Assembly: GCF_004010195.1 (NCBI RefSeq)
Contig: NC_057718.1
Location: forward strand, 7,272,110-7,326,340
DNA from: Chiloscyllium plagiosum
Taxonomy: Eukaryota
Reading direction: 5' to 3'
DNA length: 54,231 nt
Shown here: positions 3,639 to 48,519 of the stretch, in pieces
Layout of the letters: every line of letters starts with the position of its first letter
Numbering within the stretch: position 1 is the stretch's first letter
Notes under the pieces: generated by a model
Seen by the model: the letters and a program-made list of their open reading frames with translations, nothing else
What the model was told of the DNA's origin: nothing
Database searches by the model: none
Position numbers and translations under genes: made by a program

Positions 3639-3677
3639 GCAGACGTTTCGTCCCCTGTCTAGGTGACATCCTCAGTG
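3639..3677 (-). ncRNA. Minimal hammerhead ribozyme motif (inverted copy)
   Basis: Minus strand: ca CUGAGGA u gucaccu-agac-aggggac GAAAC GUC ugc. Confidence 0.7.
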
Positions 3678-3913
3678 TTGTCCCTTTGACTGGGACAACA
3701 CTACTATTATAGGACAAGCCAAACAGAGAACAGCCAGGGAATTCCTAGAGGCATGGCACTCAACTATAGATTCAATCAATAAGCACATCGATCTGGACCC
3801 AATATACCGACCACTGCAGCGGACAGCTGGAACTGACAACCGGAAGCGGCAGATTCAAACCACTACAAATGGCGGAGGAAAGATCACAGAAGCGCTTCAC
3901 AGGAGGCTGCCAA

Positions 3914-3953
3914 GCACTGACGATGTTACCTAGACAGGGGACGAAACGTCTGC
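3914..3953 (+). ncRNA. Minimal type-I hammerhead ribozyme motif (PLE family A)
   Basis: gca CUGACGA u guuaccu-agac-aggggac GAAAC GUC ugc: stem I gca/ugc, full core, loopless palindromic stem III. Confidence 0.8.
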
Positions 3954-4255
3954 AACACAAATTCCCAGCTCGGTGAACAAAACCACAACAACGAGCACCC
4001 AAGCTACAAATCTTCTCACAAACTTTGAACATGCCAGGTTTTGGGGGAAGGTAAGGAAACTGCACAAGGTGCATTGCTCATTTGGAGAGTGGACACCAGC
4101 ACAATGGGCCAAATGGTCTTTTATAACAATGCTGTGACTCAGGAGGCAGGAACTCAAACTAAAACAGTCAATTAATGAAAGGAAAACATTGAGCAGAACT
4201 TGCATTTATCTACACGCTATGCCTTTCCTGATTTCAGGGCATTGCAAAATATTTG

Positions 4256-5925
4256 ATAGAGTCATAGAGAATTACAGCATGGAAACTTCGGTCCAACCCG
4301 TCCATGCCGACCAGATATCCCAACACAATCTAGTCCCACCTGCCAGCACGCGGCCCATATCCCTCCAAACCCTTCCTATTCATATACCCATCCAAATGCC
4401 TCTTAAATGTTGCAATTGTACCAGCCACCACCACTTCCTGTGGCAGCTCATTCCATACACGTACCACTCTCTGCGTGAAAAAGTTGCCCCTTAGGTCTTT
4501 TTTATATCTTTCCCCTCTTACCCTAAACCTATGCCCTCTAGTTCTGGACTCCTCAACCCCAGGGAAAAGACTTTGCCTATTTACCCTATCCATGCCCCTC
4601 ATAATTTTATAAACCTCTATAAGGTCACCCCTCAGCCTCNNNNNNNNNNNNNNNNNNNNNNNNNNNNNNNNNNNNNNNNNNNNNNNNNNNNNNNNNNNNN
4701 NNNNNNNNNNNNNNNNNNNNNNNNNNNNNNNNNNNNNNNNNNNNNNNNNNNNNNNNNNNNNNNNNNNNNNNNNNNNNNNNNNNNNNNNNNNNNNNNNNNN
4801 NNNNNNNNNNNNNNNNNNNNNNNNNNNNNNNNNNNNNNNNNNNNNNNNNNNNNNNNNNNNNNNNNNNNNNNNNNNNNNNNNNNNNNNNNNNNNNNNNNNN
4901 NNNNNNNNNNNNNNNNNNNNNNNNNNNNNNNNNNNNNNNNNNNNNNNNNNNNNNNNNNNNNNNNNNNNNNNNNNNNNNNNNNNNNNNNNNNNNNNNNNNN
5001 NNNNNNNNNNNNNNNNNNNNNNNNNNNNNNNNNNNNNNNNNNNNNNNNNNNNNNNNNNNNNNNNNNNNNNNNNNNNNNNNNNNNNNNNNNNNNNNNNNNN
5101 NNNNNNNNNNNNNNNNNNNNNNNNNNNNNNNNNNNNNNNNNNNNNNNNNNNNNNNNNNNNNNNNNNNNNNNNNNNNNNNNNNNNNNNNNNNNNNNNNNNN
5201 NNTCCTCTTTGTTACTTCCTCAAAAAACTCAATCAAGTTTGTGAGACATGATTTCCCATGCACAAAACCATGTTGACTATCCCTAATCAGTCCTTGCCTT
5301 TCCAAATACATGAACATCCTGTCCCTCAGGATTCCCTCCAACAACTTGCCCATCACCGAGGTCAGGCTCACTGGTCTATAGTTCCTTGGCTTGTCTTTAC
5401 TGCCCTTCTTAAACAGTGACACCACATTATCCAACCTCCAGTCTTCCGGCACCTCACCTGTGACTATCGATGATACAAACATCTCAGCAAGAGGCCCAGC
5501 AATCACTTCCCTAGCTTCCCACAAAGTTCTAGGGTACACCTGATCAGATCCTGAGGATTTATCCACCTTTATGCGTTTCAAGACATCTAACACTTCCTCC
5601 TCTGTAATTTGGACATTTTGCAAGGTGTCACCATCTATTTCCCTAAGTCTATATTTTCCATATCCTTTTCCACAGTAAATACTGATGCAAAATACTCATT
5701 AAGTAACCCCCCCCCCCATTTTCTGTAGCTCCATGCAAAGGCCGCCTTGCTGATCTTTGAGGGGCCCTAGTTACCCTTTTGTCCTTAATGTATTTGTAAA
5801 AACTCTTTGGATTCTCCTTAATTCTATTTGCCAAAGCTATCTCATGTCCCCTTTTTGCCCTCCTGATTTCCCCCTTAAGTATACTCCTACTGTCTTTATA
5901 CTCTTCTAAGATTCACTCGATCTAG
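4256..5925 (-). mobile_element. CR1/HER1 LINE, 5'-truncated (RT domain; spans the N gap)
   Basis: ORF 4625-5623: KSSGSDQVYPR...NYRPVSLTSVMGKLLE...SQHGF..GKSCLTNL; C-terminus FFTQRVVRVWNELP; CR1 short-repeat tail. Confidence 0.95.
4640..5202. other. Assembly gap (563 N) inside a CR1/HER1 copy
   Basis: Run of n; both flanks are CR1 RT sequence in the same orientation. Confidence 0.99.
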
Positions 5926-6114
5926 GTGATTGAATTACTTTTTGAAACAAACAAAAACAGAAATTTCTGGAGAAACTCAGCAGCACTGGCAGTGTCTGTG
6001 GAGAGAGAAACAGAGTTAACGTTTTGAGTGCTATAATTCACACAATTTCTGTTTTTATTTGTTTCAGGTCACCAGTATCCACAATTCCTTGGTTTATTTA
6101 AGTATCTTTTGAAG

Positions 6115-7290
6115 ACAGTACACATTACAATGCATGATGCTTACCTACAGCAACAAGAGCATGAGGACATCCAGGTCTCATTGAACACACCTCTCTTACA
6201 ATTTACAGCCTATCTGGTCATAATCTGCCTTCTTATTTTTGGTACCAAAGTGGATAATCCACATTATATTGCTTCACCATATATTGGCCCATTCACTCAA
6301 CCTATCTGAATCACAGTGCAACCTCTCTGCATCCTCCTCACAGCTCACCCTCCCATCCAGTTTCATGTTGTCTTCAACCTTTGAGCTATTACATTTAGTT
6401 CCCTCATCTAAATCATTAACAAATATTGTAAATAGCTGGGATACTTGTACTGATCCTTGCGGTACCCCACTAGTCACTGCCTTTCACAAAAAGACCCATT
6501 CATTCCCACTCTGGGGGGTGGCCTGGTGGCTCTGTGGTTAGCACTGCTGCCTCACAGTGCCAGAGACCTGGGTTCGATTCCCACCATCGGGCAGCTGTCT
6601 GCGTGGAGTTTGCACATTCTCCCTGTGTCTGCGTGGGTTTGTTCCGGTTTCCTCCCACAATCCAAAGATGTGCACATCAGGTGAATTGGCCATATTAAAT
6701 TGCCTATAGCGTTAGGTACATTAGTCAGCGATAAATATAGGGTAGAAGAGTGGGCTACTCTTCGGAGGGTCGGTGTGGACTTGTTGGGCCGAACGGCCTG
6801 TTTCCATGTTGTAGGGAATCGAATTGAATCTAATCTTTGTTCTCTGTCTGCAAACCAATTTTCCTATCCCTCTCAATACACTTATCCCAATCCCACATGC
6901 TTTAATTTTACACATTAATCTCTTATGTGGGTCTTTGTCAAAAATCCTCTGAAAATCCAACTAAACCACATCCACGACCCACACCCCATGGTAAACACTA
7001 CTGGTTACATTCTTGAAGAATGTGTAGATTTGTCAAGCATGATTTCTCTTTGGCGAATCCATGGTGACAGTGCCTGATTCTATTGCTGTTTTCTAAGTGC
7101 TGTGCTGTAAAATTCAGGATAATGGATTCAAGCACCTTCCCCACTACTAGCATCAGACTCTCTGGTCTATAATTCCCCGTTTACTCTCTCCATCCCTTTC
7201 TAAATAATGCGGTTACATTAGGTATTCTTTCAATTTGTAGGAACTGTTCCAAAGTCTAAAGAACCTTGGAGGATGACCACCAATACTTTC
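6115..7290 (-). mobile_element. Older CR1 RT fragment interrupted by HE1
   Basis: TSGVPQGSV...FTIFVNDLDEG (6274-6477) and MDFQRIFDKDPHKRL (6721-6960). Confidence 0.8.
6516..6835 (+). mobile_element. HE1-type V-SINE
   Basis: ggtggctctgtggttagcactgctgcctcacag...gggttcgattcc head, V core gtggagtttgcacattctccc, tail. Confidence 0.9.
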
Positions 7291-8111
7291 ATTGTTTCTG
7301 GGGCAACCTCCTAAAGTACACAGGTGCAGCAGGTAGTAAGAAGGCAAGCAGTATGTGGACCTGCGTCGTGAGAGGATTTGAGTATAGGAACAGGGATATC
7401 TTGCTGCAGTTTTACAGGGCCATGGTGAGGCCACACCTGGAATATTGTGTGCAGTTTTGGTTCCCGTATCTGAGGAAGGATGTTCTTATTTCAGAGGAAG
7501 TGAGGTGAAGGTTTATCAAACTGATCCTGGGCTCGCAGGTGATGTATGAGGAGGGAGTAGGATTGGATTCACTGGAGTTTACTTAAAAATGACACAACAC
7601 CAGATTATAGTCCAACAGGTTTAATTGGAAGCACTGGCTTTAGGAGCGCTGCTCCTTCATCAGATAGTTGTGGAGCAAGATCATAAGACACAGAGTTTAT
7701 AGCAAAAGATCACAGAGTCATGCAACTGAAATGATATATTGAACAAACCTAGATTGCTATTACGTCTTTCACCTTTTAGAATGAATTGCAGGTTTCGATT
7801 CATTAGTATGTAAATCTCAGAACTACTTTTAAGTAACATTCTCAAGATAACATTTTATTTAAAAAAAGGTGATGTCTCAGCTCAGACAATGTACTATTGG
7901 TGTAAGGTTAGTGTCTGTCTGTATCCCAATCTTGAATCAGACTGGTTCTATTTCCAAAGTAGGAATTTATAAAATATTCATGGATTGACTGCCTGCAGAT
8001 TGTGCGCTTTTGAGCAAAATAGAATGTACCTGCAAATATAATTCTGCAAATACAAATTCACCCCGTGGACTTATATGTGTATGTGTATGCATGAGATAGA
8101 GAGAGAGAGAG

Positions 8112-8324
8112 AGGAGAAAGTGAGGTCTGCAGATGCTGGAGATCAAAGTTGAAACTTTATTGCTGGAACAGCACAGCAGGTCAGGCAGCATCCAGGGAAC
8201 AGGAGATTCGACGTTTCGGGCACAGGCCCTTCTTCCTGAAGAAGGGCCTGTGCCCGAAACGTCGAATCTCCTGTTCCCTGGATGCTGCCTGACCTGCTGT
8301 GCTGTTCCAGCAATAAAGTTTCAA
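8112..8324. mobile_element. Perfect fold-back PLE mini-element (87-bp arms, 2-nt loop, 37-nt one-sided tail) in a (GA)n tract
   Basis: 8149-8235 is the exact reverse complement of 8238-8324; sequence matches the 3' end of the family-B PLE at 36855-38800. Confidence 0.93.
8233..8266 (+). ncRNA. Minimal type-I hammerhead ribozyme motif (PLE family B)
   Basis: uuc CUGAAGA a gggc-cugu-gccc GAAAC GUC gaa: perfect stem I, stem II and core. Confidence 0.85.
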
Positions 8325-9049
8325 GAGAGAGAGAGAGTGAATGTGTGCATGTGTGTGTGCGTTTGAGTATGAGTGCATGTGGGAGAGTGTGTGTTTGCAA
8401 TTGTGCTGTTTGTGTGTGTGTGTGAGATGAGGTATAAGCCTGTGAGAGGGTATGTGTGTAGGTGTGAATGTGGTGGTTGTACGTATATGTGTATGAGAGA
8501 GAGCGCATGTATGTGTGTGTGTGTAAGTAAGAGTGCGTGTATATGTGTGCGAGAGTGTATAGTATAGTGAGGTCACCTGTCGTGTGACATGAACCCAAGG
8601 TCCCAGTTGAGGCCACCCCCATAGGTACTGAATTTGGCTATCAGCCTCTGCTCGGCTACTTTGCGTTGTTGTGTATCCAGAAGCCTGCCTTGGAGGACGG
8701 TTACCCGAAGGTCTGAGGTTGAATGTCCCTGACCACTGTGTGTGTGTGACTTAAAAGAAGTTCTGAGATTTACATATCAATGAACCAAAACTGCTACACA
8801 TACAGTCAACAACCTAGGTTTGTTCAATATGTCATCTTAGTTGCATGACACTGTGATCTTTTGCTATAAACTCTGTATCTTATGGTCCTCCTCCACAACT
8901 ACCTGATGAAGGAGCAGCACTTCAAAAACTAGTGCTTCCAAATAAACCTGTTGGACTATAACCTGGTGTTGTGTGATTTTTAACTTTGTTCACCCCAGTC
9001 CAACACTGGCTCCTCCACATCACTGAAATTTCGAAAAATGAGGGGGATC

Positions 9050-9505
9050 TCATAGAGTCATAGAGTCGCAGAGCTGCACAGTATGGAAACAGACCCCTCA
9101 ATCCAACTTGTCCATGTCGACCAGCTATCCTAACCTAATCTAGTCCCATTTGCTAGCACTTGGCTCATATCCCTCTAAACCTTTCCTATTCATATACCCT
9201 TACAAATGCTTTTTAAATGTTGCAATTGTACCAGCCTCCACCACGTCCTTGGGCAGCTTGTTCCATACACGCAAGTTGTGCCTTAAGTTCCTTTTATATC
9301 TTTCCCCTCTCACTCTAAACCTAAGCCCTCTAGTTCTGGGCTCCCCCACCCTGGGAAAAAGCCTTGTCTATTTATCCTATCCATGCCCCTCATGATTTTA
9401 TAAACCTCTACAAGGTCATCCCTCAGCCTCCAACGCTCCAGGGAAAACAATCCCAGCCTGTTCAGCCTCTCCCAATAGCTCAAACCCTCCAATCCTGGCA
9501 ACATT
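9050..9505 (-). mobile_element. CR1/HER1 3' end
   Basis: MLPGLEGLSYWERLNRLGLFSLE..RLR.DL.EVYKIMRG; catagagt tail repeats. Confidence 0.92.
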
Positions 9506-9864
9506 GTCTCATTCTAATGAAAATGATGACTTTCCAATTCCCATTCACAAGTGGTTGGCAGTGTCATTAAAATGCTTTCTAATAAACCCATTTCCCTACT
9601 CCATTGATCAACTTGTACCAAGTTTCCACTTTTAAATATATCGAGGATATTTTAAAAATATTGTTTCCAAATGATTACACTTTAAAGCACAGACTGACTC
9701 ACGGCAGGTTTTGTTTTTCTCAATGATGTGCAAATCCATCTGAGATCTAGGCCTCAGAAACTTAAGGGTAACATCCACACATTGAAATGGACATAGCTTT
9801 GGGCACAGTTTGTGCCACAATTACCAACCGAACCCAATGGAGAAACTCTATAGTAGAAATGAAT

Positions 9865-12190: not shown

Positions 12191-12199
12191 GCAGTTCGA

Positions 12200-12746: not shown

Positions 12747-12787
12747 TCAATCCATTTTGTTCTTGCTGTCAACCTTTTCTTCTATAC
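12747..12787 (-). CDS. AIG1: AIG1 terminal coding exon (41 coding bp including TGA)
   Basis: Minus strand: acceptor ctgcttttatatttctAG then gtatagaagaaaaggttgacagcaagaacaaaatggatTGA. Joined to the phase-1 T of the previous exon it reads CIEEKVDSKNKMD*, comparable to the recalled human AIG1 end SMEEEKEKPKLE*. Confidence 0.85.
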
Positions 12788-14063: not shown

Positions 14064-14260
14064 GGAGAAAATGAGGGCTGCAGATGCCGGAGATCAGAGT
14101 CAAAAGGTGTGGTGCTGGAAAAGCACAGCAGGTCAGGCAGGATCTGAGGAGCAGGAGCGTCATCATTTCAAAAGGGTTTATGCCTGAAACGTGGACTTTC
14201 TTGCCCCTCAGACGCTGCCTGACCTGCTGTGCATTTACAGAGGCATACCTTTTGACTCTT
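14064..14260. mobile_element. PLE family-B fold-back mini-element (diverged)
   Basis: Tail gagaaaatgagggctgcagatg; arms agagtcaaaaggt...cagcaggtcaggcag / ctgcctgacctgctg...accttttgactct. Confidence 0.8.
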
Positions 14261-15395: not shown

Positions 15396-16124
15396 TTGTT
15401 GACAGAAGTGGGTTTGAGCCCAGCCTTTCTCTCCTACACTTGACCCCTGACTTGAAGCTGCTGGTAATTTGATAGTTAGGACATTTCTGAGTCCTAACAG
15501 TATCATCTAATAGTGGTCCTGTGCGAAGTATGCCACTTACTCGGCACGATCACAGTTAATTTCTGCATGCTCCGATATCTGCAACATGTCTGCCTCAAGC
15601 TCCTTACCCCATGTGAGGTAGTTCGAAGCCATGATAGAACAAGAACTTTCACTTGTTCAGTCTGGGTGTTCACCTGGAAGAATAGTCAATATCGAATTCG
15701 GAAAATTAACAGTGATATCATAGGAGGATGGTCTGACAAGGGTTCTGTATAGCTGCAACATGGTTTGTCAACTCTTGTACTCCGTGACAAAAATGGAATT
15801 CACACCGTGGCAATACAGGTAACCAAGGTGATGAAGAAGGCATATGGCACGCTTGCCTTCATCGGATGGAGTATGGAGTACAAGAGTTGACAAACCATGT
15901 TGCAGCTATACAGAACCCTTGTTAGGCCATGTTTGAAGCATTGTGTGCAGTTTTAATTAGATTCCCTACAGTGTGGAAACAGGCTCCTACGCATAGAGTG
16001 GTAGGAGCCTGGAACGTACTGTTTGAAGAGGTGGTGGAAGCAGGCACATTGGTGACATTTAAGAGGCATCTGGATGGTTCCATGAATAGGGAGAAGAGAG
16101 AGGAAATATAATGAAAAGAGACAA

Positions 16125-17557: not shown

Positions 17558-17738
17558 AATCAAAATTGTGGCGCTGGAAAAGCACAGCTGGTCAGGCAGC
17601 ATCCGAGGATCACGAATGAAGAGCTTATGTTTGAAATGTCGACTCTCCTGCTCCTCGGATGCTGCCTGACAGGCTGTGCTTTTCCAGCGCCACACGTTTT
17701 GACTCTGATCTTCTGCACCTGCAGTCCTCACTTTCTCC
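17558..17738. mobile_element. PLE family-B fold-back mini-element ~50 bp from the AIG1 donor site
   Basis: Arms gtggcgctggaaaagcacagc..tcaggcagcatccgagga / tcctcggatgctgcctgac..gctgtgcttttccagcgccac; tail ctgcagtcctcactttctcct. Confidence 0.85.
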
Positions 17739-18224: not shown

Positions 18225-18560
18225 GGAACCGAAAACAGCTAATGCTGGAGATCTCAGCGGGTCAGACAGTATCCATGGGGAAAGACCAAGCTAACATTTT
18301 GACTCTAGATGACTCGAGCTGAGGGATTCCTGATGAAGGGCTTTTGCCCAAAACATTGATTTTCCTGCTCCATGGATGCTGCCTGACCTGCTGTCCTTTT
18401 CCAGCACCACTCCAATCTTGACTCTAATCTCCAGCACCTGCAGTAGCCACCTCCACCCTGAGGTACTGATGAAGAGTCATCTGGATCGAAACGTTAGTTT
18501 GCTCCCTCTCCATGGATACTATGATCTCCAATATTTGTTGTTTCCAGTACAGATTCTAGC
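18225..18560. mobile_element. Composite of PLE 3'-end mini-elements with two hammerhead remnants
   Basis: ctgatgaagggcttttgcccaaaacattg (degenerate, ~18330) and ctgatgaagagtcatctggatcgaaacgttag (18466-18497). Confidence 0.75.
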
Positions 18561-21174: not shown

Positions 21175-21535
21175 GGAGAAAGTGAGGATAATGGATGCTG
21201 GAGAATCAGAGTCGAAAAGTGTGGCGCTAGAAAAGCACAGCAGGTCAGGTAGATCCGAGGAGCAGGAGAATCGATGTTTTGGGTATGATTCCTTCATCAG
21301 GAATGTGGGAGGAGTAACGGAGGGGGGGGAAGGGGGAAGGTAGCTGAGAAGGCGATAGGTAGATGCAGATAGGTGGTGATGATGATAGGTGAGGGTGGAG
21401 CAAATAGGTGGGAAGGAAGATGAACAGGCAGGACAGTTGAAGAGGGCAGTGCCGAGTTGGAGGGTTAGATTTGGGATGAGGTGGGGGCAGGGGAGATTAG
21501 GAAACTACTGAAGCCGATGTTGGAGCTGTGTGGTT
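21175..21535 (-). mobile_element. PLE family-B 3' end
   Basis: Reverse complement of the 38470-38800 region, including a degenerate hammerhead. Confidence 0.8.
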
Positions 21536-21769
21536 GAATGGGGTGTGCAATGAGAGAGAGAGGGGGTTAGGTTTTAGTTCAGGAATCTCTGACCTCCTGT
21601 ATCACAGTCACCAATAGAGTCTGTTCCAGGGATATTTGTGAGCGATGTCAGAGGAACTATGGAGTGGGAGGATATGAGATTAGGCACAATGTTGGTCACA
21701 GGGAGTCATAGAATTCCTATAGTGTGGAAGCAGGCCATTCTGCCCTTCGAGTCCACACCACCCATTGTG

Positions 21770-23727: not shown

Positions 23728-23900
23728 AGAAGGAAAGAACTGCGGATGCTGTAAATCAGAAACGAAAACAGAAATTGCTGGGGAAGCTCAGCAGGTCTGG
23801 CAGCATCTGTGGAGAGAAATCAAAGTTAATGTTTCTGTGATATATGCTTCTCTGATTTCTTCCAGACCTGCTGGACTTTTCCAGCAATTTCCGTATTTAG
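23728..23900. mobile_element. PLE-derived palindromic mini-element
   Basis: gaaattgctggggaagctcagcaggtctgg / ccagacctgctggacttttccagcaatttc. Confidence 0.75.
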
Positions 23901-29039: not shown

Positions 29040-29460
29040 CATGAAGTGGAGGGGCTGGTGTTGGACTTGGGTATACAAAGTCCATGGCGCCAGCTTATAG
29101 TCCAATGGGTTCACTTGAAATCACAAGCTTTCAGATTCGCTGCTCCTTTGTCGGGTGGAGGGAAGCACACAGACACAGAATGTATAGGCAGAGAGATAAT
29201 GGTGAGATAATTCCAGGTAATTAAGAATGTCAACAGATAAGTGTAAATGGTGTGAGAGGGGTGTCAACAGCAAGTCTCTGCAGCTGATCAAAAGTGTCAG
29301 ACAGTCTGAGAAAAGTGTCATCAGCTGAATAATAAGTGAAGGGATGACCTATGAATCCATTAATTAAGGCAGAGAGACAATTTTACAAATAATCAAAACT
29401 AAGACCGTGCTAGAGACAAACCAAATGGCTGGAATCTGATGGAAGACCATTCCCTGGTCC
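29040..29460 (-). mobile_element. PLE family-C 3' end (diverged)
   Basis: Similar to the reverse complement of 8900-9022 (ggtgttggact..ttatagtccaa..gctgctcctt). Confidence 0.6.
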
Positions 29461-30390: not shown

Positions 30391-31264
30391 AATCCCTCAT
30401 GTTCTATGAAACCTGCCCCTCGCAGGAGAGGGCTAACATCTCTCCTGTGGAGATGGCGAGACATCCAAGTCCTACCAATTGAGTAAGTGCCACTCTTCAT
30501 TCCACTGCAACTCTCCCATGAACCCCACTGCCAGTGTCACTGCCTGCTCACCACCTCTGACCATCAGCCACAATGCCTCCTCCCGCCCGCGTCTTGTAGG
30601 TACTTGTGGGATATCCATTACCCTTATGGTGACCTGGGCTACTCTACCAAAGTCAGAGACTTTGTCTGCATGCACAGAGAGGAACAGGATGTGACAATAC
30701 TATGGCTTTAAGAGGTGTATTTTGTCATATTGCTTTCAATGAAGAGAGGTTGGGATAGAGGTTGAGTGGTCTGTTCCAAGTCAATAGAGCAAACAGTTTA
30801 TGAAGCCTTGTTTTTTTTTCAAAGTTGGGACAATAGGAGCAGTATAAATGAGTAGAGTCGGGCTCCCACAGATTTTAGTTTCGCTTTCTCTCTTTGTGAC
30901 AGCTAAAAACTGGGGTTCTCTCTCCGCCTCGAGAATAGCAGGTGAGATAATCAATTTTACTGATTTTACCTTCAAGGTTGTGTTAGTGGCATGTTACTAT
31001 ACTGCTGTTTAGTAGTTAAATAATCTGTTTTTCTGTTCCGTTTCCAATAGAGTGGTTTGTATTTTAACTGTAGAGTAGGAATAAAGTGGTCTGGACCACA
31101 CATGACTCCAGACCCATAGTAATGTGGTTGACTCTTAACTGCCCTCTGGGCAATTAGGAATGGGCAATAAATGTTGGGCCTAGCCAGCAATACCCTCATC
31201 CCATGAATGATATTTTAAAAAAAAAACAAGAATCCAAGATTGTTGTTCGCTCCTGCTAGATTAG

Positions 31265-32355
31265 AACTATAGACCAGTAAGCCTGACGTCGGTGGTGGGC
31301 AAGTTGTTGGAGGGAATCCTGAGGGACAGAATGTACATGTATTTGGAAAGGCAAGGACTGATTAGAGATAGTCAACATGGCTTTGTGTGTCAGAAATTGT
31401 GTCTCACAAACTTGATTGAGTTTTTTGAAGAAGTAACGAGGAGAATTAATGAGGGCAGAGCGGTGGACATGATCTATATGGACTTCAGTAAAGCAATCAA
31501 CAAGGCTCCTCATGGTAGACTGGTTAGCAAGGTTAGATCACACGGAATACAGGGAGAACTAGCCATTTGGATACAGAACTGGCTTGAAGGTAGAAGACTG
31601 AAGATGGTGGTGGAAGGTTGCTTTTCAGACTGGAGGCCTGTGACCAGTGGAGTGCCACAACGATCAGTGCCGGGTCCACTACTTTTTGTCATTTTATATG
31701 ATTTGGATGTGAACATAGGAGGTATAGTTTGTAAGTTCGCAGATGACACCAAAATTGGAGGTGTAGATTGGACCTTGATCAGATGAGCCAATGGGCCGAG
31801 GAGTGGCAGATGGAGTTTAATTTAGATAAATGTAAGATGCTGTATTTTGGAAAGGCAAATCAGAGCAGGATTTATATACTTAATGGTAAGGTTTTAGGGA
31901 GTGTTGCTGAACAAAGAGACCTTGGAGTGCAGGTTCATAGCTCCTTAAAAGTGGAGTCATGGGTAGATAAGACAATGAAGAGGGCATTATAGAGGTTTAT
32001 AAAATCATGACAGGCATAGATATGGTGAACAGCCAAGTTTTGTCTCTGAGGTGGGGGAGTTCAGAACTAGAGGACATATTTTTAAAGTAAGAGGGGAATA
32101 TTTAAAAGGCACCTGAGGGACAACGTTTTGACACAGAGGGTAGTGCATATATGGAACGAGCTGCCAGAGGAAGTGGTGGAGGCTTGTACAATTAGAGCAT
32201 TTAAAAAACATCTGGATGAGTATATGAATAGGAAGGGTTTAGAGGGATATGGGCCAAATGCTGGCAAATGGAGCTAGATTAATTTAGGATATCTGGTTGG
32301 CATGGATGAGTTGGACCGAAGGGTCTGTTTCCATACTGTACATCTCTATGATTCT
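31265..32355 (+). mobile_element. CR1/HER1 RT with an internal deletion
   Basis: ORF 31292-31786: GKLLEGILRD...YMDFSKA...SGVPQRSV...KFADDTK, followed by the 3' end. Confidence 0.95.
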
Positions 32356-34299: not shown

Positions 34300-35235
34300 A
34301 TTGGATGTAGGTTTGCTCACTGAGCTTGAAGGTTCGTTTTCAGATGTTTCGTCACTATACTATGTAACGTCTTCAGTGAGCCTTCAGATGAAGCACTGGT
34401 GGTATAGCCCACTCTCTATTTATGTGTTTGGGTTTCCTTGGGTTGGCGATGTCATTTCCTGTTGTGACATCATTTCCTCTGGTGATGTCATTTTCTATTC
34501 GTTTTCTCAGGGCGTGGTAAATGGGATCCAAGTCAATGTGTTTGTTGTTAGAGTTCTGGTTGGAATGCCATACTTCTAGGAATTCTCGTGCGTGTCTCTG
34601 TTTGGCTTCTCCTAGGATAGATGTGTTGTCTCAGTCTAAATGATGTTCTTCCTCATCTGCACGTAAGGATACAAGTGATCGTGGGTCATATCTTTTTGTG
34701 GCTACTTGATGTTCATGTATCCTGGTGGCTAGTTTTCTGCCTGTTTGTCCAATGTAGTGTTTGTTACAATTCTTGCAAGGTATTTTGTAAATGACCTTGG
34801 TTTTGCTCGTTGTCTGTACTGGATCTTTCAAGTTCATTCGCTGCTGTTTTAGTGTGTTGGTGGATCTGTGGGCTTCCATGATGCCAAGGGGTCTGAGTAG
34901 TCTGGCAGTCATTTCTGAGATATCTTTGATATTGGAGAGAGTGGCTAGGGTTTCTGGACGTGTTTTGTCTGCTTGTTTGGGTTTGTTGCTGAGAAACCAG
35001 TGGACTGTGTTCATTAGGTACCCATTCTTTTTGAATACATTGAATAGGTGATTTTCCTCTGCTGTGCGTAGTTCCTCTGTACTGCAGTGTGTGGTGGCTC
35101 GTTGAAATAATGTTCTGATGCAGCTTCATTTGTGGATGTTGGGATGATTGCTTCTGTAGTTCAATAGTTGATCTGTACATCCGTTCAATGCATCCAGAAC
35201 CTCAACCTGAGCTACAAATCTTCTCAAAACCCGCT
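34300..35235 (-). mobile_element. Penelope-like element (family A): RT thumb and GIY-YIG, with only the tail inverted at the 5' side
   Basis: VIYKIPCKNCNKHYIGQTGRKLATRIHEH (34631-35014); hammerhead remnant 34340-34379 (tca CUGAAGA...GAAAC AUC uga); plus-strand tail catccagaacctcaacctgagctacaaatcttctcaaaac at ~35191-35230. Confidence 0.92.
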
Positions 35236-35239
35236 GTCC

Positions 35240-35730
35240 TCGGAATGTCGCAGTGTTCCAGTGAATCACAGCGCAAACTGGAGAAACAACATCTCATCTT
35301 CAGAGTAGGCTCTTTACAGCCTTCTAGGTTTAATATTGAGTTCAACACTTTTAGACTGTGAACCTTTTCCTTCCTTTCTTTTAGCGTTTTATCATGTCCG
35401 CCCTCCCCCTCATTCCACTTACTGTCTTTCAAGTTGGCCAGTTAGACACACCATTGTTCTGCCATTCTCACATTCTGATCACTTAATGTAAATTACAAAG
35501 ATCTTTTCTCCACCAGCACTCACTATCCCCACCCACCACTCCCCTGAACTACAGCATAATTGCTGTCCCTCCACACTTCACATCAGCTCTGATGAAGAGT
35601 CATCTAGACTCGAAACGTTAGCTTGCTCTCTCTCTCTCTCTCTCTCTCTCTGTGGATGCTGCCTGACCCGCTATGATTTCCAGCATTTGTCGTTTTCAGT
35701 AGAGATTCCAGCCTCTGCAGTAATTTGTTC
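35240..35730 (+). mobile_element. PLE 3' end (family D) with (CT)n
   Basis: RKLEKQHLIFRVGSLQPSRFNIEF EN terminus, then 3' UTR, hammerhead and gatgctgcctgacc motif. Confidence 0.8.
35585..35623 (+). ncRNA. Minimal type-I hammerhead ribozyme motif (PLE family D)
   Basis: agcu CUGAUGA a gaguc-aucua-gacuc GAAAC GUU agcu: 4-bp stem I, 5-bp stem II, intact core. Confidence 0.85.
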
Positions 35731-35927: not shown

Positions 35928-36249
35928 GAGTTGAAAAATGTGGTGCTAGAAAAACACAGCAGGCCAGGCAGCATCCGAGGAGCAGGAGAATCGACGTTTC
36001 GGGTATAAGCCCTTCTTCAGGAATGAGGCTGGTGTGCCAAGCGGGCTGGGATAAAAGGTAGGGGGGAGGGAATTTGGGGGAAGGGCGCTGGGAATACGAT
36101 ACGTGGAAGGAGGTGAGGGTGAGGGTGATAGCCCGGAGAGAGGGTGGGGGCGGAGAGGTCGGGAAGAAGATGCTGCCTGGCCTGCTGTGTTTTTCCAGCA
36201 CCACATTTTTCAACTCTGGTCTCCAGCATCTGCAGTCCTCACTTTCTCC
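35928..36249. mobile_element. PLE family-B fold-back element with a 14-bp target-site duplication
   Basis: ttattagattgcaa at 35914-35927 and 36250-36263; inverted arms; minus-strand hammerhead at 35989-36024. Confidence 0.9.
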
Positions 36250-36854: not shown

Positions 36855-38800
36855 CCTCCACCTCATTGTCCGTGAACCCCATACCACCCAATTCTACCTC
36901 CTACCGAAGATTTACAAACCTGACTGCCCCGGTCGACCCATTGTCTCAGCCCGCTCCTATCCCAGTCAATGTATTGCTGCATACCTTAACACCGTCCTGT
37001 CCCTCTTAGTCCCCCTTAGTCCAAGAACTCTCCACCTACGTTCAGGACACCACCCATGCACTTCACCTCCTCCATGACTTTTGTTTTCCCGGCCCCCAAT
37101 GCCTTATCTTCACCATGGACATCCAGTTCCTGTACACACCGATCCCTCCACCTACGTTCAGGACACCACCCATGCACTTCACCTCCTCCATGACTTGTTT
37201 TCCCGGCCCCCAATGCCTTATCTTCACCATGGACATCCAGTTCCTGTACACACCGATCCATCATGACGAAGGCCTCCAAGCCCTCTGTTCCTTCCTCTCA
37301 CCCTGTCCCAACCAGTACCCTTCCACTAACACCCTCATCCACTGGCTGAACTGGTCCTCACTCCTAAAAACTTCTCCTTCCAATCTTCCCACTTCGTCCA
37401 AACCAAAGGGGTAATCTGCCTCTTTGTTGGGTATGTGGAACAGTTCATTTTCCGCAGCTACACCGGCACCATCCCCCATCTTTTCCTCCGCTACACTGAT
37501 GACTTAGCAGTGCTACCTCGTGCTCCCACGAGGAGGTTGAACAATTCATCAACTTTACTAACAACTTTCACTCTGACCTCAAATTCATTTGGACCATCTC
37601 GGACACCTCCCTCCCCTTCCTGAACCTCTCTATCTCTATCTCCAGTGGTCAACTAACTATGGACATCTACTACAAACCCATCGACTCCCATAGCTACCTG
37701 GACTACATTTCCTCCCACCCTGCATCCTGTAAAACTGCCATCCCTTATTCCCAATTCCTCCGCCTCCCCCGCATTTGTTCCCAAGATGATCAATTCCACC
37801 TCCGAACCTTCCAGATGGCGTCCTTCTTCCACAATCGCAACTTCCCCTCCCACGTGGTTGACGATGCCCTCCAGCGCATCTCCTCCACTTCCAGCACCTC
37901 TGCCCTTGAAACCCACCCCTCCAATCGCAACTAGGACAGAACACTCCCCAGTCCTCACCTTCCACCCCACCATCCTCCATCACTTTTGCCACCTATAAAC
38001 AGACCCCTAGGGATATATTTCCCTCCCCCACCCTATCAGGATTCTGGAGAGACCATTCCCTCTGCGACTCTCTTGTCAGATCCCACCAGCCCAGGCACCA
38101 CTCCTGGAAGCTTCCCCTGTCATGCAGGAAGTGCAAAACCTGTGCCTACTTCTCCCTTCCTCACCTCCATCCAAGGCCCCAAAGGATCCTTCCACATCTG
38201 ACAGAAATTTACCTGTACCTGCACAAATGTCATCTAAAGTATCTGTTGCACCCAATGTGGTCTCCTCTACATCGGGGAGACAGGACGCCAACTTGCAGAT
38301 CATTTCAGAGAACATCTCTGGGACACCCACACCAAACAAGCCCACCGCCCTGTGGCTGAACACTTCAACTCCCCCTCCCACTCCGCCAAGGACATGTAGG
38401 TCCTGGGCCTCCTCTATCGCCAAACACTAACGACCCGACGCCTGGAGGAAGAACACCTCATCTTCCGCCTTTGGACCCTGCAACCACACAGGAGTAATGT
38501 GGATTTCACCAGTTTCCTCATTTCCCCTCAGCCCACCATATCCCAGTCCCAAGCGTCCAACTCGGCCCCACCCTCTTGACCTGTCCATTGTCTATCACAC
38601 ACCCAGCTACCTTCCCTCCAGTTGCACCCCCACCCATTTATCTCTCAGCCCCCACCATCCCACAAGCCTTATTGCTGATGAAGGGCTTATGTCTAAAACA
38701 TTGATTCTCCTGCTCCTTGGATGCTGCCTGACTGGCTGTGCTTTTCCAGCACCACATTCTCAACTGTAATCTCCAGCATCTGCAGTCCTCACTTTCTCCC
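36855..38800 (+). mobile_element. Penelope-like element (family B, Neptune-like), decayed RT and GIY-YIG
   Basis: FYLLPKIYKPDCPGRPIVSA; LRYTDD; DIYYKPIDSHSYLDY.S.HP..CK.AIPYSQFLR; Cys-rich linker and LYIGETGR.L..HFREH; 3' end with a degenerate hammerhead. Confidence 0.93.
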
Positions 38801-39104: not shown

Positions 39105-39590
39105 GAAAGAACTGCTGATGCTGAAATTCAGAATCAAAAGTAGAAACTGCTGGAAAGTCTCAGCAGCTCAGCACAAGCACCTCACTTACCACTTGGGGAA
39201 TCTGCAGCCTTCTGGAGTTGACATTAAATTCAACAATTGTAGGGTTTGAACACCTTTCCCTATGCTTTCTCCCACTCCCCCACACACCAGGCCATGTTAT
39301 TACTCATTGTCAGTCACTAGTTGTCTGCATTAGCATCCGTTCCTTCCTCCAGTCTGACCTTTACCCCCTCCTTTGTCTGTCGAACTGTTCTTCTCTCTCT
39401 CTGGGCTCTATCTCCACCTATCGTTTACTCTCCTCCCCTCCCCCCACCCCATCTTCGATATAAAAACCATCCTTTTCCCAGTTACCATCACTTCTAAGGA
39501 AGGTTCACTGGGCCCGAAACATCTGATTTCTCTCCATAGATGCTGCCAGACCTGCTGAGCTTTTCCAGCGATTTCTGTGTTTTGTTTTAG
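39105..39590. mobile_element. PLE family-D fold-back element (diverged)
   Basis: Left arm gaaactgctggaaagtctcagcag, EN tail, right arm gatgctgccagacctgctgagcttttccagc. Confidence 0.65.
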
Positions 39591-42439: not shown

Positions 42440-42780
42440 TCATAGAATCCCTACAGTGTGGAAGCAGGCCATTCAGCCCATCGAGATCACACTGGTCCTA
42501 CAAAGAGCATCCCACCCAGACCGACTCACCCTACCCTGTAACCTTGCAGTTCCCCTGGCTAATCCACCTAGCCTGCACATGGCTGGATGCTATGGGCCAG
42601 TTAGCATGGCCAATCCACCTAATCTGCACACATCTTTAGACTGTGGGACGAAACCGGAGCATCCAGCGAAAACCCACGCAGAGACGGGGAGAATGTGCAA
42701 ACTCCGTACAGTCACCCGAGGAACTAAACCCAGGTCCCTGATGCAGTGAGGCAGCAGTGCCAACCACTGAGCTACTATGC
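42440..42780 (-). mobile_element. HE1-type V-SINE
   Basis: catagaatccctacagtgtggaagcagg tail through gcagtgccaaccactgagc head. Confidence 0.88.
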
Positions 42781-42879
42781 ATCATACATACGTATTAAGA
42801 CTATGGGAAGAAAATCTGCTGCCATTTGATAATACTGCACTTCTATGATCATCTCCAATTAAATACAATATAGCCACTG

Positions 42880-43582
42880 TCCCTTGACACTCAGTGGTGT
42901 TACCATCACTGAATCCCCCACTATTAACCACCTGGAGATTACCAATGAACAAAAACTCAATTGCACTCACCATATAAACACAGTGATTTCTAGAGCAGGT
43001 CAGATACTAGGAATAATGCAGCGAGTAACTCAGCTCCTGACCTCCAAAGCCTGTCCACCATCCACAAGGCACAAGTCAGGAGTGTGATGGATTACTCCCC
43101 AATTGCCTAGATGGGCTTAGCTCCAACAACATTCAAGGAGCTTGACACCATCCAGGACAAAGCAACCCACTTGATTGGAACCACATCCACAACATCCAGT
43201 CCCTCTACCACCGACACTCAGTAGCAGCAATGTGTACTATCAACAAGACGCACTGCAGAAATTCATCAAAGATCCTGAGACAGCACCTTCTAAACCACGT
43301 CCACTTCCATCTAGAAGGACAAGGGCAACAGATACATGGGAACACTACCCCCTGTAAGTTCCATCCAACCCACACACCATCCTGAGTTGGAAATATGTCA
43401 ACTGTTGCTGGGTCAAAATCCTGGAATTCCCTCCCTAAGGGCATTGTTGGTCTACCTACAGGACATGGACTGCAGCAGTACAAGAAGGAAGCTCACCACC
43501 ACCTTCTCAAGGGGCAAATAGGGATAAGCAAGAAACGTTGGCCCAACCAGAGATGCCCACAACCCAAGAGTGAATAAAAAAA
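42880..43582 (+). mobile_element. CR1/L2-group LINE 3' end (apparent partner of SINE family 2)
   Basis: RAGQILGIMQRV...KAQVRSVMDYSP RT-thumb-like sequence and WNSLP; tail gggcaaatagggataagcaa...gatgcccacaaccc...gaataaaaaaa shared with SINE family 2. Confidence 0.8.
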
Positions 43583-44100
43583 GACTTGATCCCAGTGCTA
43601 GGCTCAGCATTTACATACTCATTTACCTGACTTTTATTATAAAGAAAGGAATCCTTACTTAGTTTATGCAATCTCTCCCTTTTTTTCAACTCCCTCCAGA
43701 AAACAGTTGTGGATAATAAATGTGCCCCCTCTGTATTCTGCCTTGCAGTCTGCTCTCCCTGTGGGCTTCCAGTGTTGTTTATGTACCTGGTGCCCTCTGC
43801 CCTCAGACCGAACATCAAGCTGCCTTTTCCATTATTGTTTCTCTTTTCTTCAACCAAACCCCTGCTCCACCCCACTCCCACACTCCACCTCCCCACAGAG
43901 CAATGCTCCCCTGATCTCTCAGGGATATTAACAGGTTATTTATTGTTCAGTCTCTACAGTGAAAGTTACTTCCGCTAAACATTTTGATTCCCAGTGAGGG
44001 TATGATGGTGTCATGGTGACATCGCTGGCAGCAGTAGACCGGAACCCTGAGTTAATTAACCCAGATGGAAATGAACAAAAGTTCAAACACCTGAAGAAAA

Positions 44101-44194
44101 AAAATTGTGAAGGGCTTTGGAGAAAGTTCATGGGAAGGTGCTAATTTAGTTGTGTCTCTTCCCGTGAACTTTCTCCAAAGCCCTTCACAATTTT
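44101..44194. repeat. 37-bp inverted repeat with a 20-nt loop
   Basis: 44101-44137 versus 44158-44194; one mismatch. Confidence 0.92.
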
Positions 44195-44554
44195 GACCAC
44201 GTTAAATTACCCATAGTGTTAGGTGCTTTAGTCATAGGGAAATGGGTCTGGGTGGGTTACTCTTCGGAGGGTCGGTGTGGACTTGTTGGGCTGAATGGCC
44301 TGTTTCCATGCAGCAGATAATCTAATCTAAGTCCCAGACCATTATCTGGACCTTTCGATTAACAGTCCAGTGAAATCCCACAAGGTCATCATCTCCCAAT
44401 TTGAATGCAGTAGTAGAGGAATAACATTATTTCTTGAGAAGTTATCATTCTGATCTTACAGTGTTGAACTACGTATCTTGGATAACAGGAATGAAAAATC
44501 TAATGGGGTTTCCAGTTGACACAAAGAAAGAATGTGCATCTGTGTGGTAAATAT

Positions 44555-44910
44555 AAAACAAAGAATTGCAGCTGCTGAAAATCTGCAACAAAAGTGGAAA
44601 TTGCTGGAGAAACTCAGCAGGTCTGGCACCAACTGTTTAGAGAGAAAGCAGAGGTAAGGTTTCCAGTCCAGTGATTCCTCCTCACATTAAACATAAACAG
44701 TAATAGCAGGGCACCAATGTCAAGGATGATCATAGCACCTCTTAAGATTCAAACACAAATACTTCCAGAAATGTGAATGTGCAGTGGTCAATGAATAAGG
44801 GTTAGGAATGGGAAGAGGAAGGGTCACTGGAGTTGAGAAACTTTGACTCTGCTTTCCCTCCATGGATGCTGCCAGACCTGTTGTGTTTCGCCAGCAATTT
44901 CTAAACTTGT
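44555..44910. mobile_element. PLE-derived palindromic element
   Basis: gaaattgctggagaaactcagcaggtctggca / tgccagacctgttgtgtttcgccagcaatttc. Confidence 0.7.
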
Positions 44911-45279
44911 TTGCATTTGTATATCCTTAGTATGCCCCAAAAAGGCTTCACACAACCAAAGAAATACACGTGTAGTTATTGTGCGCAGAAGATCCCACAA
45001 ATGCAGATGAATTGACTGGTCAGTAAACCCACCTGCAGGTTGGGTTGCAAAGACATGGGGTGGAGGTCAGATTAAGCTGAGCTGAGGTGCTTTACAAGTG
45101 GAATCATATTCAAGTAATTTTTATTCTATCCAACTTCCTGGTCCATGTCCATCTCCAAAAGGAGCAAATCTAATCATCTCCCTTGACATTCAGTAAGATT
45201 ACCAGATCAAAATCACACACTGTCTGTATAGTAGGCTACCATTTGCTATATCTTCAGATATCAGCACTGCCTGCATCTA

Positions 45280-45910
45280 CATAGGAACAGGTCATTCAGC
45301 CCCTCAAACCTGCTCTACCATTCAATGAGATCTTGGCTGATCCGTGGCCTAACTCTATATACCTGCCTTTTGACAATATCCCTTAATATGTTTGCTTTAA
45401 ACAAGTTGATCTATCTCAGATTTAAAATCAACAACTGATCTAATATCAGCTGCCATTTGCAGAAGAGAGTTCCAACCCTCGACCAGCCTTTGTGTAGAAG
45501 TACTTCCCAATAACTCTCCAGATCATCTCACCCTAATTCTTAGGCTATGGGCCCTAATTCTCAGGCTATGGGCCCTAATGCTAGAATCTACAGCTTGTGG
45601 GAACAGTTTATCTATCTATATGTCTTGATATCTTGAAGATATCTTGAAGATTTTGATCAGATCACCCCTTAATCTTCTAAATCCTTGAGAAAACAGGCCT
45701 AATTTGTATAATCTCGTCTTGTTACTTAACCCCTGAAGTCTATGTATCATTCTTGTAAACCTAAATTGTACTTCCTCCAAGGCCAATATATCCTTCCTAA
45801 GGTGTGGTGCCTAGATCTGCTGATAGTATTCCAAGTGGGATCTAACCAGGGTTTTGTATAACTACAGCATAACTTCTACATCCTTAAACTCCAGCCATTT
45901 GGATATAAAG
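45280..45910 (-). mobile_element. CR1 RT C-terminus and 3' end
   Basis: Reverse complement of a CR1 3' UTR and the accctggttagatcccacttggaatac motif (LVR.HLEY). Confidence 0.8.
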
Positions 45911-46684
45911 GCTGCTTTGTGGTGTGGAATCATGTGGGATACCTGGTTTCGAATAATGACCACCAATCCTTCTTATTTGTATTAGGCAGGATGGACATAC
46001 AAAGCCATTAGCAGAAGATTAACTCAGTCTTGATAAACAGAATACATTGATCACGTTGGTACTTAATAGCTAGTTATGCGACATGTGAGTTGCATGAGAA
46101 TCTTTGCTAAGTCTTCAGTCTAGACCTAAGAGTAAGTACACACATAACTGCAACTGATACATTCTAGTACACAATGTAGCGATGACTAAACATTTGGAAT
46201 ACAATGGTTACTCTCTCTCAAGAACAATCCATTATATCCTGATGGATAGAGCTTATCCCATAATCACTGCTAACCGCTTTCAGGTACTAACTGTCTTATG
46301 CAACACCTGCCCACAATGGGAATAAAGAATCAATCTCCTCAAACTCTCCTCATAATTCTTTGCCACATCCTGCAAATTAGTCTGGTGAACTTTTGCTGCA
46401 CTGCCTACATGGTTAGTACATCTCACCTTAGATACAAAACCGTACACCATATTCCAGGTGAAGTCCTACCTCTGCTCTGTATAACTGCAGCAAGATATCT
46501 TTACTCCTGAACTCAAGTCATCTTGCAATAAAGACCAACCAATTTGCCTTCCTGACTGCTTGGGTGATTCCTGTATCCTAATCTTTAATGACTGATGGAC
46601 ACCAATACTTCCCAAACCCTCACCATTTAAGAAATATTCTGCCTTGCAGAGTTTTTCCACCAAAGTGGATAAATTCAAACTTAT

Positions 46685-46975
46685 TTGATTACCTACAGTA
46701 TGGAAACAGGCTCTTCAGCACAACAAGCCCACCACTGACCCGCCAAAGAGTAACCCACTCAGACCCATTCCTCTACCTTATATTTACCCTTGACTAATGC
46801 ACCTAACACTATGGGCAATTTAGCCTCGCCAGTTCACCTGACCTGCGCATCTTTGGATTGTGGGAGGAACAACTAGTGGGGACCCGCACAGACAGTCACC
46901 CAAGGCAGGGATTGAACCCGGGTCCCTGACACTGTGATGTGGCAGTGCTAACCATTGAGCCACTATGCCACCCTT
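46685..46975 (-). mobile_element. HE1-type V-SINE
   Basis: ggaaacagg tail through gcagtgctaaccattgagccac head. Confidence 0.85.
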
Positions 46976-47421
46976 ATAAGGAGCACATTCCATCTGCCAT
47001 GTGGATTTAGCACCTACCCTTGCAGTATCTTTCTAGTAACAGCCTATCATCCTGAGATGAATCCACTTATTCCTATTCTCCGCTGTCTTTCTGTAGACCC
47101 ATTCTCAGTCTTCTACATTGCTACTTTTCCCCCAATCCCTTGCACTCTAATTTTATTTATGAACTTCCTGTATGGGGCTTGAACAAAAGTCTATAGGAAA
47201 TCCATATACACCACATGTGCTAGTTCTCCTTTAACAATATATAAATAATATCCTCAAAAAACTCCATCAAGCTTTTTAGAAATGATTTCCCTTTCATTAA
47301 ACTAAATTGGCTCTATGTCCAATTTTACGATTATGTTCTAAATGTCCAGTTGCTACATTCTAATAGATCTTATTATTTGCCCTACTGCTAGTGTCAGACT
47401 AACAGGTCTCCAGTCTCCAGT

Positions 47422-48519
47422 CTCTTGTAGTGAATTCTCCGTTCGGTGTTCTCTGTACCATCACGTCTAGGAATGGGAGTTGGCTATCCTTTTCTTCTTC
47501 TCTCGTGAATCGGATTCCTGTGAGTGTGGCGGAAATAGAAAAAACACACCGGATCATCAACGCCACACTCACAGGAATCCGATTCACGAGAGAAGAAGAA
47601 AAGGATAGCCAACTCCCATTCCTAGACGTGATGGTACAGAGAACACCGAACGGAGAATTCACTACAAGAGTATACAGGAAAGGCACACACACAGACCAAG
47701 TCCTAAACTATGAAAGTAACCACCCCAACACACACAAACAACGCTGCATCAGGACACTATTCAACGGGCCACAACACACTGCAGCACACCAGGACTGCAA
47801 AAAGATGAAGAGGAACACCTATACAAGGTATTAGCCAAAAACGGATACCCGCGTAACTTCATCAACAGATGCCTAAGAGAAAGACCACGGAACGAGGACA
47901 TACCACAACCAAAAGGACTAGCCACACTACCATACATCAGGAGCATCTCGGAACTGACTGCCAGACTACTGCGACCCCTAGGACTCATAACGGCATACAA
48001 ACCAACAGCCACGCTCAGACAACAACTCACCAGAACGAACGACCCGATACCCAACATGAGCAAAACGAATGTAGTGTACAAAATACCATGCAAGGACTGC
48101 ACAAAACACGATATAGGACAAACAGGAAGACAGCTAACAATCCGCATACATGAACATCAACTAGCCACGAAACGACACGACCAGCTATCCTTAGCAGACA
48201 ACAAGCAACATGAATTCGACTGGGAAAACACTACTATCATAGGGCAAGCCAAACAGAGAACAGCCAGGGAATTCCTAGAGGCATGGCATTCACCAAAAAA
48301 TCCATCAACAAACACATTGACCTGGACCCAATATACCAACCACTACAGCGGACAGCTGAAACTGACAACCGGAAGCGGCAGGGACAGACCACTATAAACA
48401 CCGGAGGAAACATCAAAGAAGCGCTTCGCAGGAGGCTCCCAAGCACTGATGATGTCGCCTAGTCAGGGGACGAAACGTTTGCAACAAAAACTTCCAGCTC
48501 GGCAAACAGAACCACAACA
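47422..48519 (+). mobile_element. Young Penelope-like element (family A), 5'-truncated, with a perfect 110-bp fold-back at the 5' end
   Basis: IRFTREEEKDSQLPFLDVMV..VYRK.THTDQVLNYESNHP; NVVYKIPCKDCTKHDIGQTGRQLTIRIHEH; inverted repeat 47422-47531 / 47561-47670. Confidence 0.95.
48443..48482 (+). ncRNA. Minimal type-I hammerhead ribozyme motif (PLE family A)
   Basis: gca CUGAUGA u gucgccu-aguc-aggggac GAAAC GUU ugc. Confidence 0.82.

Follow-up and report, generated by a model that had tools for sequence, protein, structure and literature searches.

Minimal type-I hammerhead motifs, probably of Penelope-like retroelements, in the genome of the shark Chiloscyllium plagiosum

Introduction

Penelope-like elements (PLEs), retroelements in which hammerhead motifs are known from flatworms to reptiles, carry minimal hammerheads that fall into covarying families and share a base between positions 9 and 10.1, a G10.1-C11.1 pair, and a palindrome at positions 15.2-16.2, as set out in the main text of Cervera and De la Pena (2014, PMC4209133). 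The same text describes these motifs as mostly single, or as opposite-strand pairs 100-700 base pairs (bp) apart, and gives counts of about 4,000 in the coelacanth and about 9,000 in Xenopus. In Poseidon PAc from Anolis, the cut site lies downstream of the start codon, at a distance of 26 bp, and PAc is reported to cut and extend both DNA strands (Frangieh et al. 2024, PMC11167929). For sharks, and Chondrichthyes in general, the only literature found on PLE hammerheads is a 2026 preprint (10.64898/2026.07.22.740005); such species may be listed in the supplementary files of this preprint or of the paper by Cervera and De la Pena. The present analysis concerns a stretch of 54,231 nucleotides (nt) from the shark Chiloscyllium plagiosum (assembly GCF_004010195.1, contig NC_057718.1, positions 7,272,110 to 7,326,340; hereafter the window), in which an earlier note had described several families of minimal hammerheads carried by PLEs. 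The motifs are very probably minimal type-I hammerheads of Penelope-like retroelements: each of three PLE lineages has its own version of the motif (families A, B, and C), as does at least one non-coding derivative (family D), with the same boxes and with covarying stems.

Set against the minimal hammerheads described in the main text of Cervera and De la Pena, the motifs have the same boxes, the same absence of helix III and loop 3, the palindrome at 15.2-16.2, the unpaired base, the G10.1-C11.1 pair, and a short helix I; they likewise form covarying families, and the copies are mostly single, truncated, or in opposite-strand pairs. They differ in their host group, which goes unnamed in that main text, in number (164,338 here against about 4,000 and about 9,000 there, counted with different descriptors), in the helix II of family B, which is just 4 bp long, and in one family, D, having AGCU instead of ACGU. 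The finding is real and was correctly recognised, and the kind of element is already known; what is new is that it occurs in this host and at this scale, that one family has AGCU, that family A has a stop and an AUG within its motif, and that mini-copies start at the motif edge. The class thereby gains a host whose PLE hammerheads are unusually numerous and uniform.

Motif anatomy and stem covariation

All thirteen sites that the earlier note had named in the window, six as intact and seven as decayed, are present as described. The core bases are kept at all six of the former, and one of the latter, 18466(+), also has an intact core, with one stem II base lost, so that all hammerhead boxes are intact at seven window sites (CUGANGA ... 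GAAA ... UH, in type-I order). A strict descriptor required the CUGANGA and GAAA boxes, H17, a stem II of 4 bp or more in which one mismatch was allowed, and a stem I of at least 3 bp, together with a self-complementary insert between A15.1 and U16.1, that is, a palindromic loopless stem III. It has four matches, all on the plus strand (3914-3953, 8233-8266, 35585-35623, and 48443-48482), while 300 dinucleotide-preserving shuffles gave a mean of 0.0067 matches per window and a maximum of 1. The two minus-strand sites called intact, 3639-3677 and 35989-36024, keep every core base and fail the strict descriptor, their stem I being 2 bp each, and in the second G>A further turns the GCCC of stem II into ACCC; with 18466(+) they make three core-intact sites with weak stems. 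The remaining six of the thirteen sites are decayed, the usual losses in old copies being the CpG of the ACGU palindrome or G12. A loose core pattern matched the window 14 times against a mean of 6.10 in 100 shuffles, one of which also reached 14, an excess that is weak evidence when taken alone.

A covariance model trained on an alignment of 63 distinct copies reports 13 window sites at an expectation value (E) of at most 0.03. Six of these are training rows; the other seven are 18324+, 8210-, 21267-, 18460+, 7630-, 38669+, and 8897+, of which 18460 is a training row as well and six are not. The model retrieves 12 of the 13 sites named earlier, and the thirteenth, 34340(-), was found by the family-A profile (E 8.3e-7). 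With such profiles, each comprising motif and tail and built from genome copies, one per family, the window shows about 31 3'-module arms, of which about 24 have a hammerhead-derived part, so that the earlier estimate of more than a dozen motifs was an undercount.

The motifs fall into five families with the following stems.

Family A: stem II GUCRCC/GGGGAC with one fixed mismatch; stem I GCA/UGC.
Family B: stem II GGGC/GCCC; stem I AUUC/GAUU with a U.U mismatch in genome copies, UUC/GAA in the window copy at 8233.
Family C: stem II GAGUC/GACUC; stem I AGCU/AGCU.
Family D: stem II GGAGC/GCUCC; stem I CAC/GUG.
Family E: stem II GGGUC/GACCC; only decayed copies in the window.

Both the grouping by stem II and the covarying stem I listed before are borne out, the genome-wide form of family-B stem I being an addition. 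No family has a loop 3; A15.1 and U16.1 enclose CG (A, B, C, and E) or GC (D), giving the palindromes ACGU and AGCU. A single unpaired base stands between A9 and stem II in every family, being U for family A and A for B, C, and D, and the best parse places it in all four strict matches. Stem II begins with G10.1-C11.1 throughout. Of the 67 distinct copies taken from the window and the genomic loci, 63 have G-C here, and the regular expression by which they were collected made no demand for this pair; all four strict matches have it, as well as CG inside the A...U of stem III. Conservation over the five families is confined to the catalytic bases C3, G5, A6, G8, G12-A14, and H17, all else being variable.

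Among the same 67 copies, pair II.1 forms in 65, II.2 in 67 (GC 35, UA 22, AU 10, unpaired 0), I.1 in 63 (CG 31, AU 22, UA 6, UG 4), and I.2 in 60. Covariation was assessed on six pairs lying in consistent columns of a MAFFT alignment (A1). Here, 81.0% of the cells are paired against 61.6% in shuffles, and the covariation score is 0.575 against 0.217, neither value being reached by any of 500 shuffles; controls in which the partner was slid along the alignment left 17.7-46.1% of cells paired. Stem covariation across families, whose absence the earlier note would have taken as a refutation, is therefore found, and minimal type-I hammerheads in several families are what the strict descriptor and the covarying stems both point to. 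The alignment rows are akin and stem from about five lineages, which makes this a handful of independent covariation events rather than 63.

Elements carrying the motifs

Family A adjoins a PLE frame with reverse transcriptase (RT) and GIY-YIG endonuclease (EN): RVT_1 is recognised in the frame of locus L058 (E 8.7e-8), GIY-YIG in the window paralogue at 34300..35125 (E 2.8e-4, 21.6 bits), and the C-terminus clusters with GIY-YIG/HTH_animal protein groups (score 0.96). Across the genome, the Pfam GIY-YIG model gave one weak match among the 150 scored of 14,403 candidates. With the final 225 codons that precede the motif at 48446 in the window as a protein query, all 150 of the scored candidates matched, from 90,407 first-look candidates, and in 26 of the 30 loci returned the family-A motif lies at the same relative position. 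Measured from the end of the tblastn match to a PLE frame, 29 of the 31 intact family-A motifs in the window and the loci start at a distance of 17-122 nt, which is exactly 52 nt in 25 of the 31. A full-length family-A copy was not found among the loci, L070 being another inverted pair.

The UAG stop of the family-A frame is positioned in hammerhead loop II, and the bases A9, unpaired U, and G10.1 together read AUG. In most of the 30 copies examined, reading from this AUG (MSPxQGTKRLQ...) meets no stop before the tail ends. Family A is in this respect like Poseidon PAc as published, with an AUG where stem II begins and the cut site 28 nt after its A (26 bp in PAc), and different from it in that the preceding frame also ends within the motif. 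As to whether the AUG would be a true start codon, the layout offers a resemblance only.

The motifs of families B and C lie about 120-260 nt 3' of EN-domain remnants from two further PLE lineages. The family-B EN (36900-38769) aligns to that of family A (E 8e-7) and, as a tblastn query, matches upstream of family-B motifs (L033, L035, and window 21480-21539) and of family-C motifs (window 35146-35352, E 1.5e-8; L005, E 5.5e-23; L002, E 0.003). Between lineages, the EN domains are merely 33-41% identical, and the family-A frame used as a query had no match upstream of B, C, or D motifs, except for one nested family-B copy. In families A, B, and C alike, the motif stands downstream of the RT-EN frame, and no upstream or tandem copy was seen in the window or in L070, some of the locus stretches being N.

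Family D is, to judge from its layout, a non-autonomous element of the same build as PLEs. Six copies, picked for covering the full upstream part seen in the window, outline a non-coding element of about 600 nt with one motif each, in which some 500-560 nt of common upstream sequence, CA-rich on its 5' side, lead up to the motif and its 60-90-nt tail. The earlier attribution of the motifs to PLEs thus holds for families A, B, and C, which adjoin RT or EN remnants, and does not extend to family D, in which none of the six copies has an EN match, nor to family E, which stays unplaced.

In being non-coding and having a type-I hammerhead, family D is like the non-LTR (long terminal repeat) retrozymes, which are thought to depend on PLE enzymes (10.64898/2026.07.22.740005). 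This preprint reports retrozymes in its single Chondrichthyes genome, derived from PLE terminal repeats, and the length and single motif of family D would also suit such elements. That the motifs are non-LTR retrozymes, tandem non-coding repeats that cut themselves into small circular RNAs, is nevertheless quite unlikely. Retrozymes are defined by tandem units, whereas the copies observed here are dispersed, 5'-cut, or head-to-head, not head-to-tail; none of the 3 window arrays reported by Tandem Repeats Finder contains a motif, the fetched family-D copies are single, and families A to C adjoin coding remnants.

Numbers in the genome

The genome was searched with the pattern CTGANGANGN{7,22}CGAAACGTH, the control being the pattern read backwards. 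This ACGU pattern has 66,290 + 66,510 = 132,800 matches against 35 + 37 = 72 for the reversed control, and the AGCU version (AGCT in the pattern) has 15,858 + 15,680 = 31,538 against 8 + 3 = 11. Both patterns together give 164,338 intact cores against 83 controls, or one per 21.6 kb; the window has 7, where 2.5 would be expected at genome density. The first 100 ACGU-pattern matches listed comprise 97 family-B-like motifs and 3 of family A, and one family-B 28-mer occurs 33,157 times in the genome, a family-C 31-mer 40 times. Each motif is situated in the last ~100-135 nt of its element, with a tail of 40-100 nt after it, and is therefore kept even by heavily 5'-cut copies, hence its frequency.

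A very large and probably unannotated population had been foreseen from the window; its size is confirmed by this search, and the second part is fair as regards Rfam. The catalytic core is like that of the Rfam hammerhead families, yet no such family in Rfam 15 is reported on the whole window, nor on 91-nt stretches around two intact motifs, even at E <= 10, likely because helix III is absent. Standard RNA annotation overlooks every one of these motifs.

Copy number alone is silent on function, and most copies are dead on arrival and decaying, for instance by loss of the CpG of ACGU. Both observations would suit the reading that a repeat resembles a hammerhead only incidentally, without any role of its RNA under selection, and that the counts reflect its amplification. 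This is highly unlikely, since lineages as far apart as their EN domains indicate retain the boxes, the unpaired base, the G10.1-C11.1 pair, and the palindromic stem III, and since the stems change in step, the shift from ACGU to AGCU included. Selection would, on the hammerhead reading, keep the RNA motif in active lineages.

Arrangement of the modules in the window

The modules recognised in the window are as follows.

918..1063, both strands: family-E head-to-head pair, the motif reduced to its GAAACGUU side.
3636..3681, minus: family-A motif, core intact, stem I only 2 bp (41.5 bits), lying innermost in a short inverted arm (3620-3690).
3700..3938, plus: C-terminal end of the family-A PLE frame (...REFLEAWHS...STDDVT), its UAG stop within hammerhead loop II.
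3911..3956, plus: family-A motif passing the strict descriptor; tail until ~4017.
7585..7677, minus: family-D module whose core has decayed (G12>U, U16.1>C); it makes up an inverted pair together with 8745-9000.
8142..8325, both strands: family-B head-to-head pair forming a near-perfect hairpin; plus arm with intact motif 8230-8269, minus arm cut within the CUGA box.
8889..9000, plus: family-D module, decayed core.
14100..14253, both strands: family-B head-to-head pair, both modules decayed.
17561..17702, both strands: family-B head-to-head pair, both modules decayed.
18228-18320, minus: family C, cut before CUGA, first of a three-module cluster (18228..18552).
18320-18410, plus: family B, decayed, second of the cluster.
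18463-18552, plus: family C, intact core and damaged stem II, third of the cluster.
21211..21307, minus: family-B module, decayed core; EN remnant upstream, 21480-21539(-).
29070..29160, minus: family-D module, decayed.
34300..35125, minus: 5'-cut family-A PLE with the EN part of the frame (34631-35125) and a decayed hammerhead (34343-34376).
35146..35703, plus: family-C element with EN remnant 35146-35352 (E 1.5e-8) and intact hammerhead 35583-35625; tail until ~35703.
35932..36029, minus: family-B module, intact core, stem II GCCC>ACCC, stem I 2 bp (53.4 bits).
36900..38769, plus: 5'-cut decayed family-B PLE with RT (YTDD), thumb, EN (CxxC...YIGETGRQL...), and decayed hammerhead 38669-38708; tail until 38769.
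47403..48528, plus: 5'-cut family-A PLE with frame shifts, the last 225 amino acids open (47720-48394) and containing the EN domain; intact hammerhead 48440-48485; tail until ~48528.
5954-6029(-), 23762-23887 (pair), 39482-39581(+), 44575-44684(-), and 44815-44907(+): further decayed family-E copies.

The two family-D arms at 7583-7838(-) and 8745-8983(+) form one inverted pair, about 900 bp apart, and enclose the family-B hairpin together with a GT-rich simple repeat. The decayed family-B PLE has, within its RT region at 37030-37259, a 114-bp unit that is present twice (98% matches).

Ends of the copies and head-to-head pairs

Both 5'-cut copies and inverted head-to-head copies, by which PLEs are known, are found. 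Thirty family-B places (L009-L038) were examined, two head-to-head pairs being sampled from both arms, which leaves 28 distinct places. Of these 30 copies, 22 have their start by the motif's 5' edge, 0-11 nt upstream of CUGA, rather than at the cut site, and 16 of the 22 adjoin an inverted arm; an upstream extension of at least 43 nt is present in only 8. Family-B starts at the motif edge would be explained if transcripts began there or if reverse transcription stopped there. One short family-B copy (L016) has a 10-nt target duplication. Families B and A each have two preferred tail ends, which lie about 62 or 100 nt past the motif in the former and about 40 or 60-90 nt past it in the latter. 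Such discrete ends agree with what is reported for PAc, whose insertions likewise end in the tail and whose reverse transcription starts at discrete internal sites.

Five head-to-head pairs in the window include part of the motif, and two more consist of tails only or lie ~130 nt apart. If the shark elements share the two-strand cutting and extension reported for PAc, this would yield head-to-head copies here. Genome-wide, among intact anchors, the inverted arm next to a family-C(-) arm is family C(+) in 11 cases and family B(+) in 0, though B is far commoner; independent templates for the two arms of a pair were rejected on these counts. By the same counts, the mixed pair at 18228-18410 is probably due to chance, and the cluster at 18228-18552, in the order C(-) B(+) C(+), looks like repeated insertion at one spot.

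It is conceivable, if rather doubtful, that motif and tail (~100-135 nt) are themselves the copied unit. Tens of thousands of near-identical family-B mini-copies would then begin from the motif's 5' edge, through a transcript start or an RT stop, with both arms of a pair from one family; the hammerhead would be mainly the handle of a parasite of PLE enzymes resembling short interspersed elements, its palindrome an RNA pairing site and its cutting secondary. If this is true, the population is among the largest of hammerhead motifs counted in one genome. The same copies bear on starts at the 5' edge and on the origin of head-to-head pairs.

Cleavage and its bearing on insertion

That the motifs would self-cleave after H17 as dimers is taken from the literature on motifs of this kind. 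In folding, stems I and II alone gave -4.2 to -9.3 kcal/mol, and the minimum-energy structures of family-A and family-C monomers pair the core bases otherwise; the dimer is a kissing complex, outside the reach of a nested folding model. Following published work, the transcript would be cut after GUH only if helix III forms between two copies or if the element protein helps.

Copying of cleaved RNA should leave many insertions starting at the first base of the tail. Among genome copies with the family-B tail, 286 have a purine for C17, 171 a purine for U16.1, and 155 a pyrimidine for G1.1, and the excess of about 120 at C17 amounts to less than 1% of at least 33,157 family-B copies and could equally be due to a difference in mutation rate. 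The RNA data comprise the one run that gave aligned reads (X19), with 6,894 reads, mostly 90-95% alike, on both strands, and repeat-derived. The cut does not appear to be what sets the ends of inserted copies, and the scarcity of starts at the cut site and the lack of a pile-up of read ends agree with the report on PAc; the motif may still have a processing role with no input to insertion. Since the insertions do not start at the cut site, the copies form a natural data set on the role of the ribozyme.

Several results weigh against hammerheads of PLEs as the full account. At most a few hundred of the at least 33,157 family-B copies could start at the cut site, and run X19 shows no preferred place at which reads begin or end, its single-cell poly(A) library being ill-suited to end mapping. 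The covarying families are merely about five independent lineages. The Pfam GIY-YIG match in family A is 1 bit under the cut-off of 22.6, Pfam has no match on the family-B EN region translated through its stops, and family D has no coding link to PLEs, with an EN match at E <= 1 in 0 of 6 copies. The window and L070 show neither a pseudo-LTR (pLTR)-open reading frame (ORF)-pLTR arrangement nor any pair in head-to-tail order at unit spacing.

It is possible, without being likely, that the motif owes its retention to some function other than cutting, as a fold recognised by the RT/EN protein, a point of RNA-RNA pairing, or a structured 5' end of the transcript, with self-cleavage marginal or absent in vivo. 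Such a role would fit the 22 of 30 family-B copies that start within 11 nt of the motif's 5' edge, 16 of them next to an inverted arm, as well as the near absence of an excess at the cut site and of piled-up read ends. The low in vitro activity published for PLE motifs (PMC4209133) points the same way, as does the report that PAc cleaves only with protein, that its core mutants insert normally, and that no RNA-seq ends lie at its cut site (PMC11167929). The bases common to the five families, however, are the catalytic ones while the rest varies, and PAc cleavage does occur when protein is added (PMC11167929), both of which favour a hammerhead that cuts.

Other repeats and microRNA-like hairpins

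A long interspersed element (LINE)-type RT at 31000-32200(+) (RVT_1 E 2.9e-12, FADDTK) has no relation to the PLEs, and its RVT_1 frame at 31265-31786 was rejected as a PLE candidate, being LINE-like in its FADDTK. Positions 4640-5202 are a run of 563 N, across which openness in six frames is an artefact.

Rfam microRNA models score 26-50 bits, all under their gathering thresholds, at 8168-8306, 14107-14249, 951-1035, and 23763-23900. These regions are head-to-head pairs of PLE 3' modules, long near-perfect hairpins that could be mistaken for microRNA precursors, and they matter for the annotation of small-RNA genes in this genome. Further long inverted repeats with sub-threshold scores of this kind, at 44101-44194, 47483-47609, and 15724-15935, are not hammerhead modules; that at 47483-47609 lies within a family-A PLE remnant.

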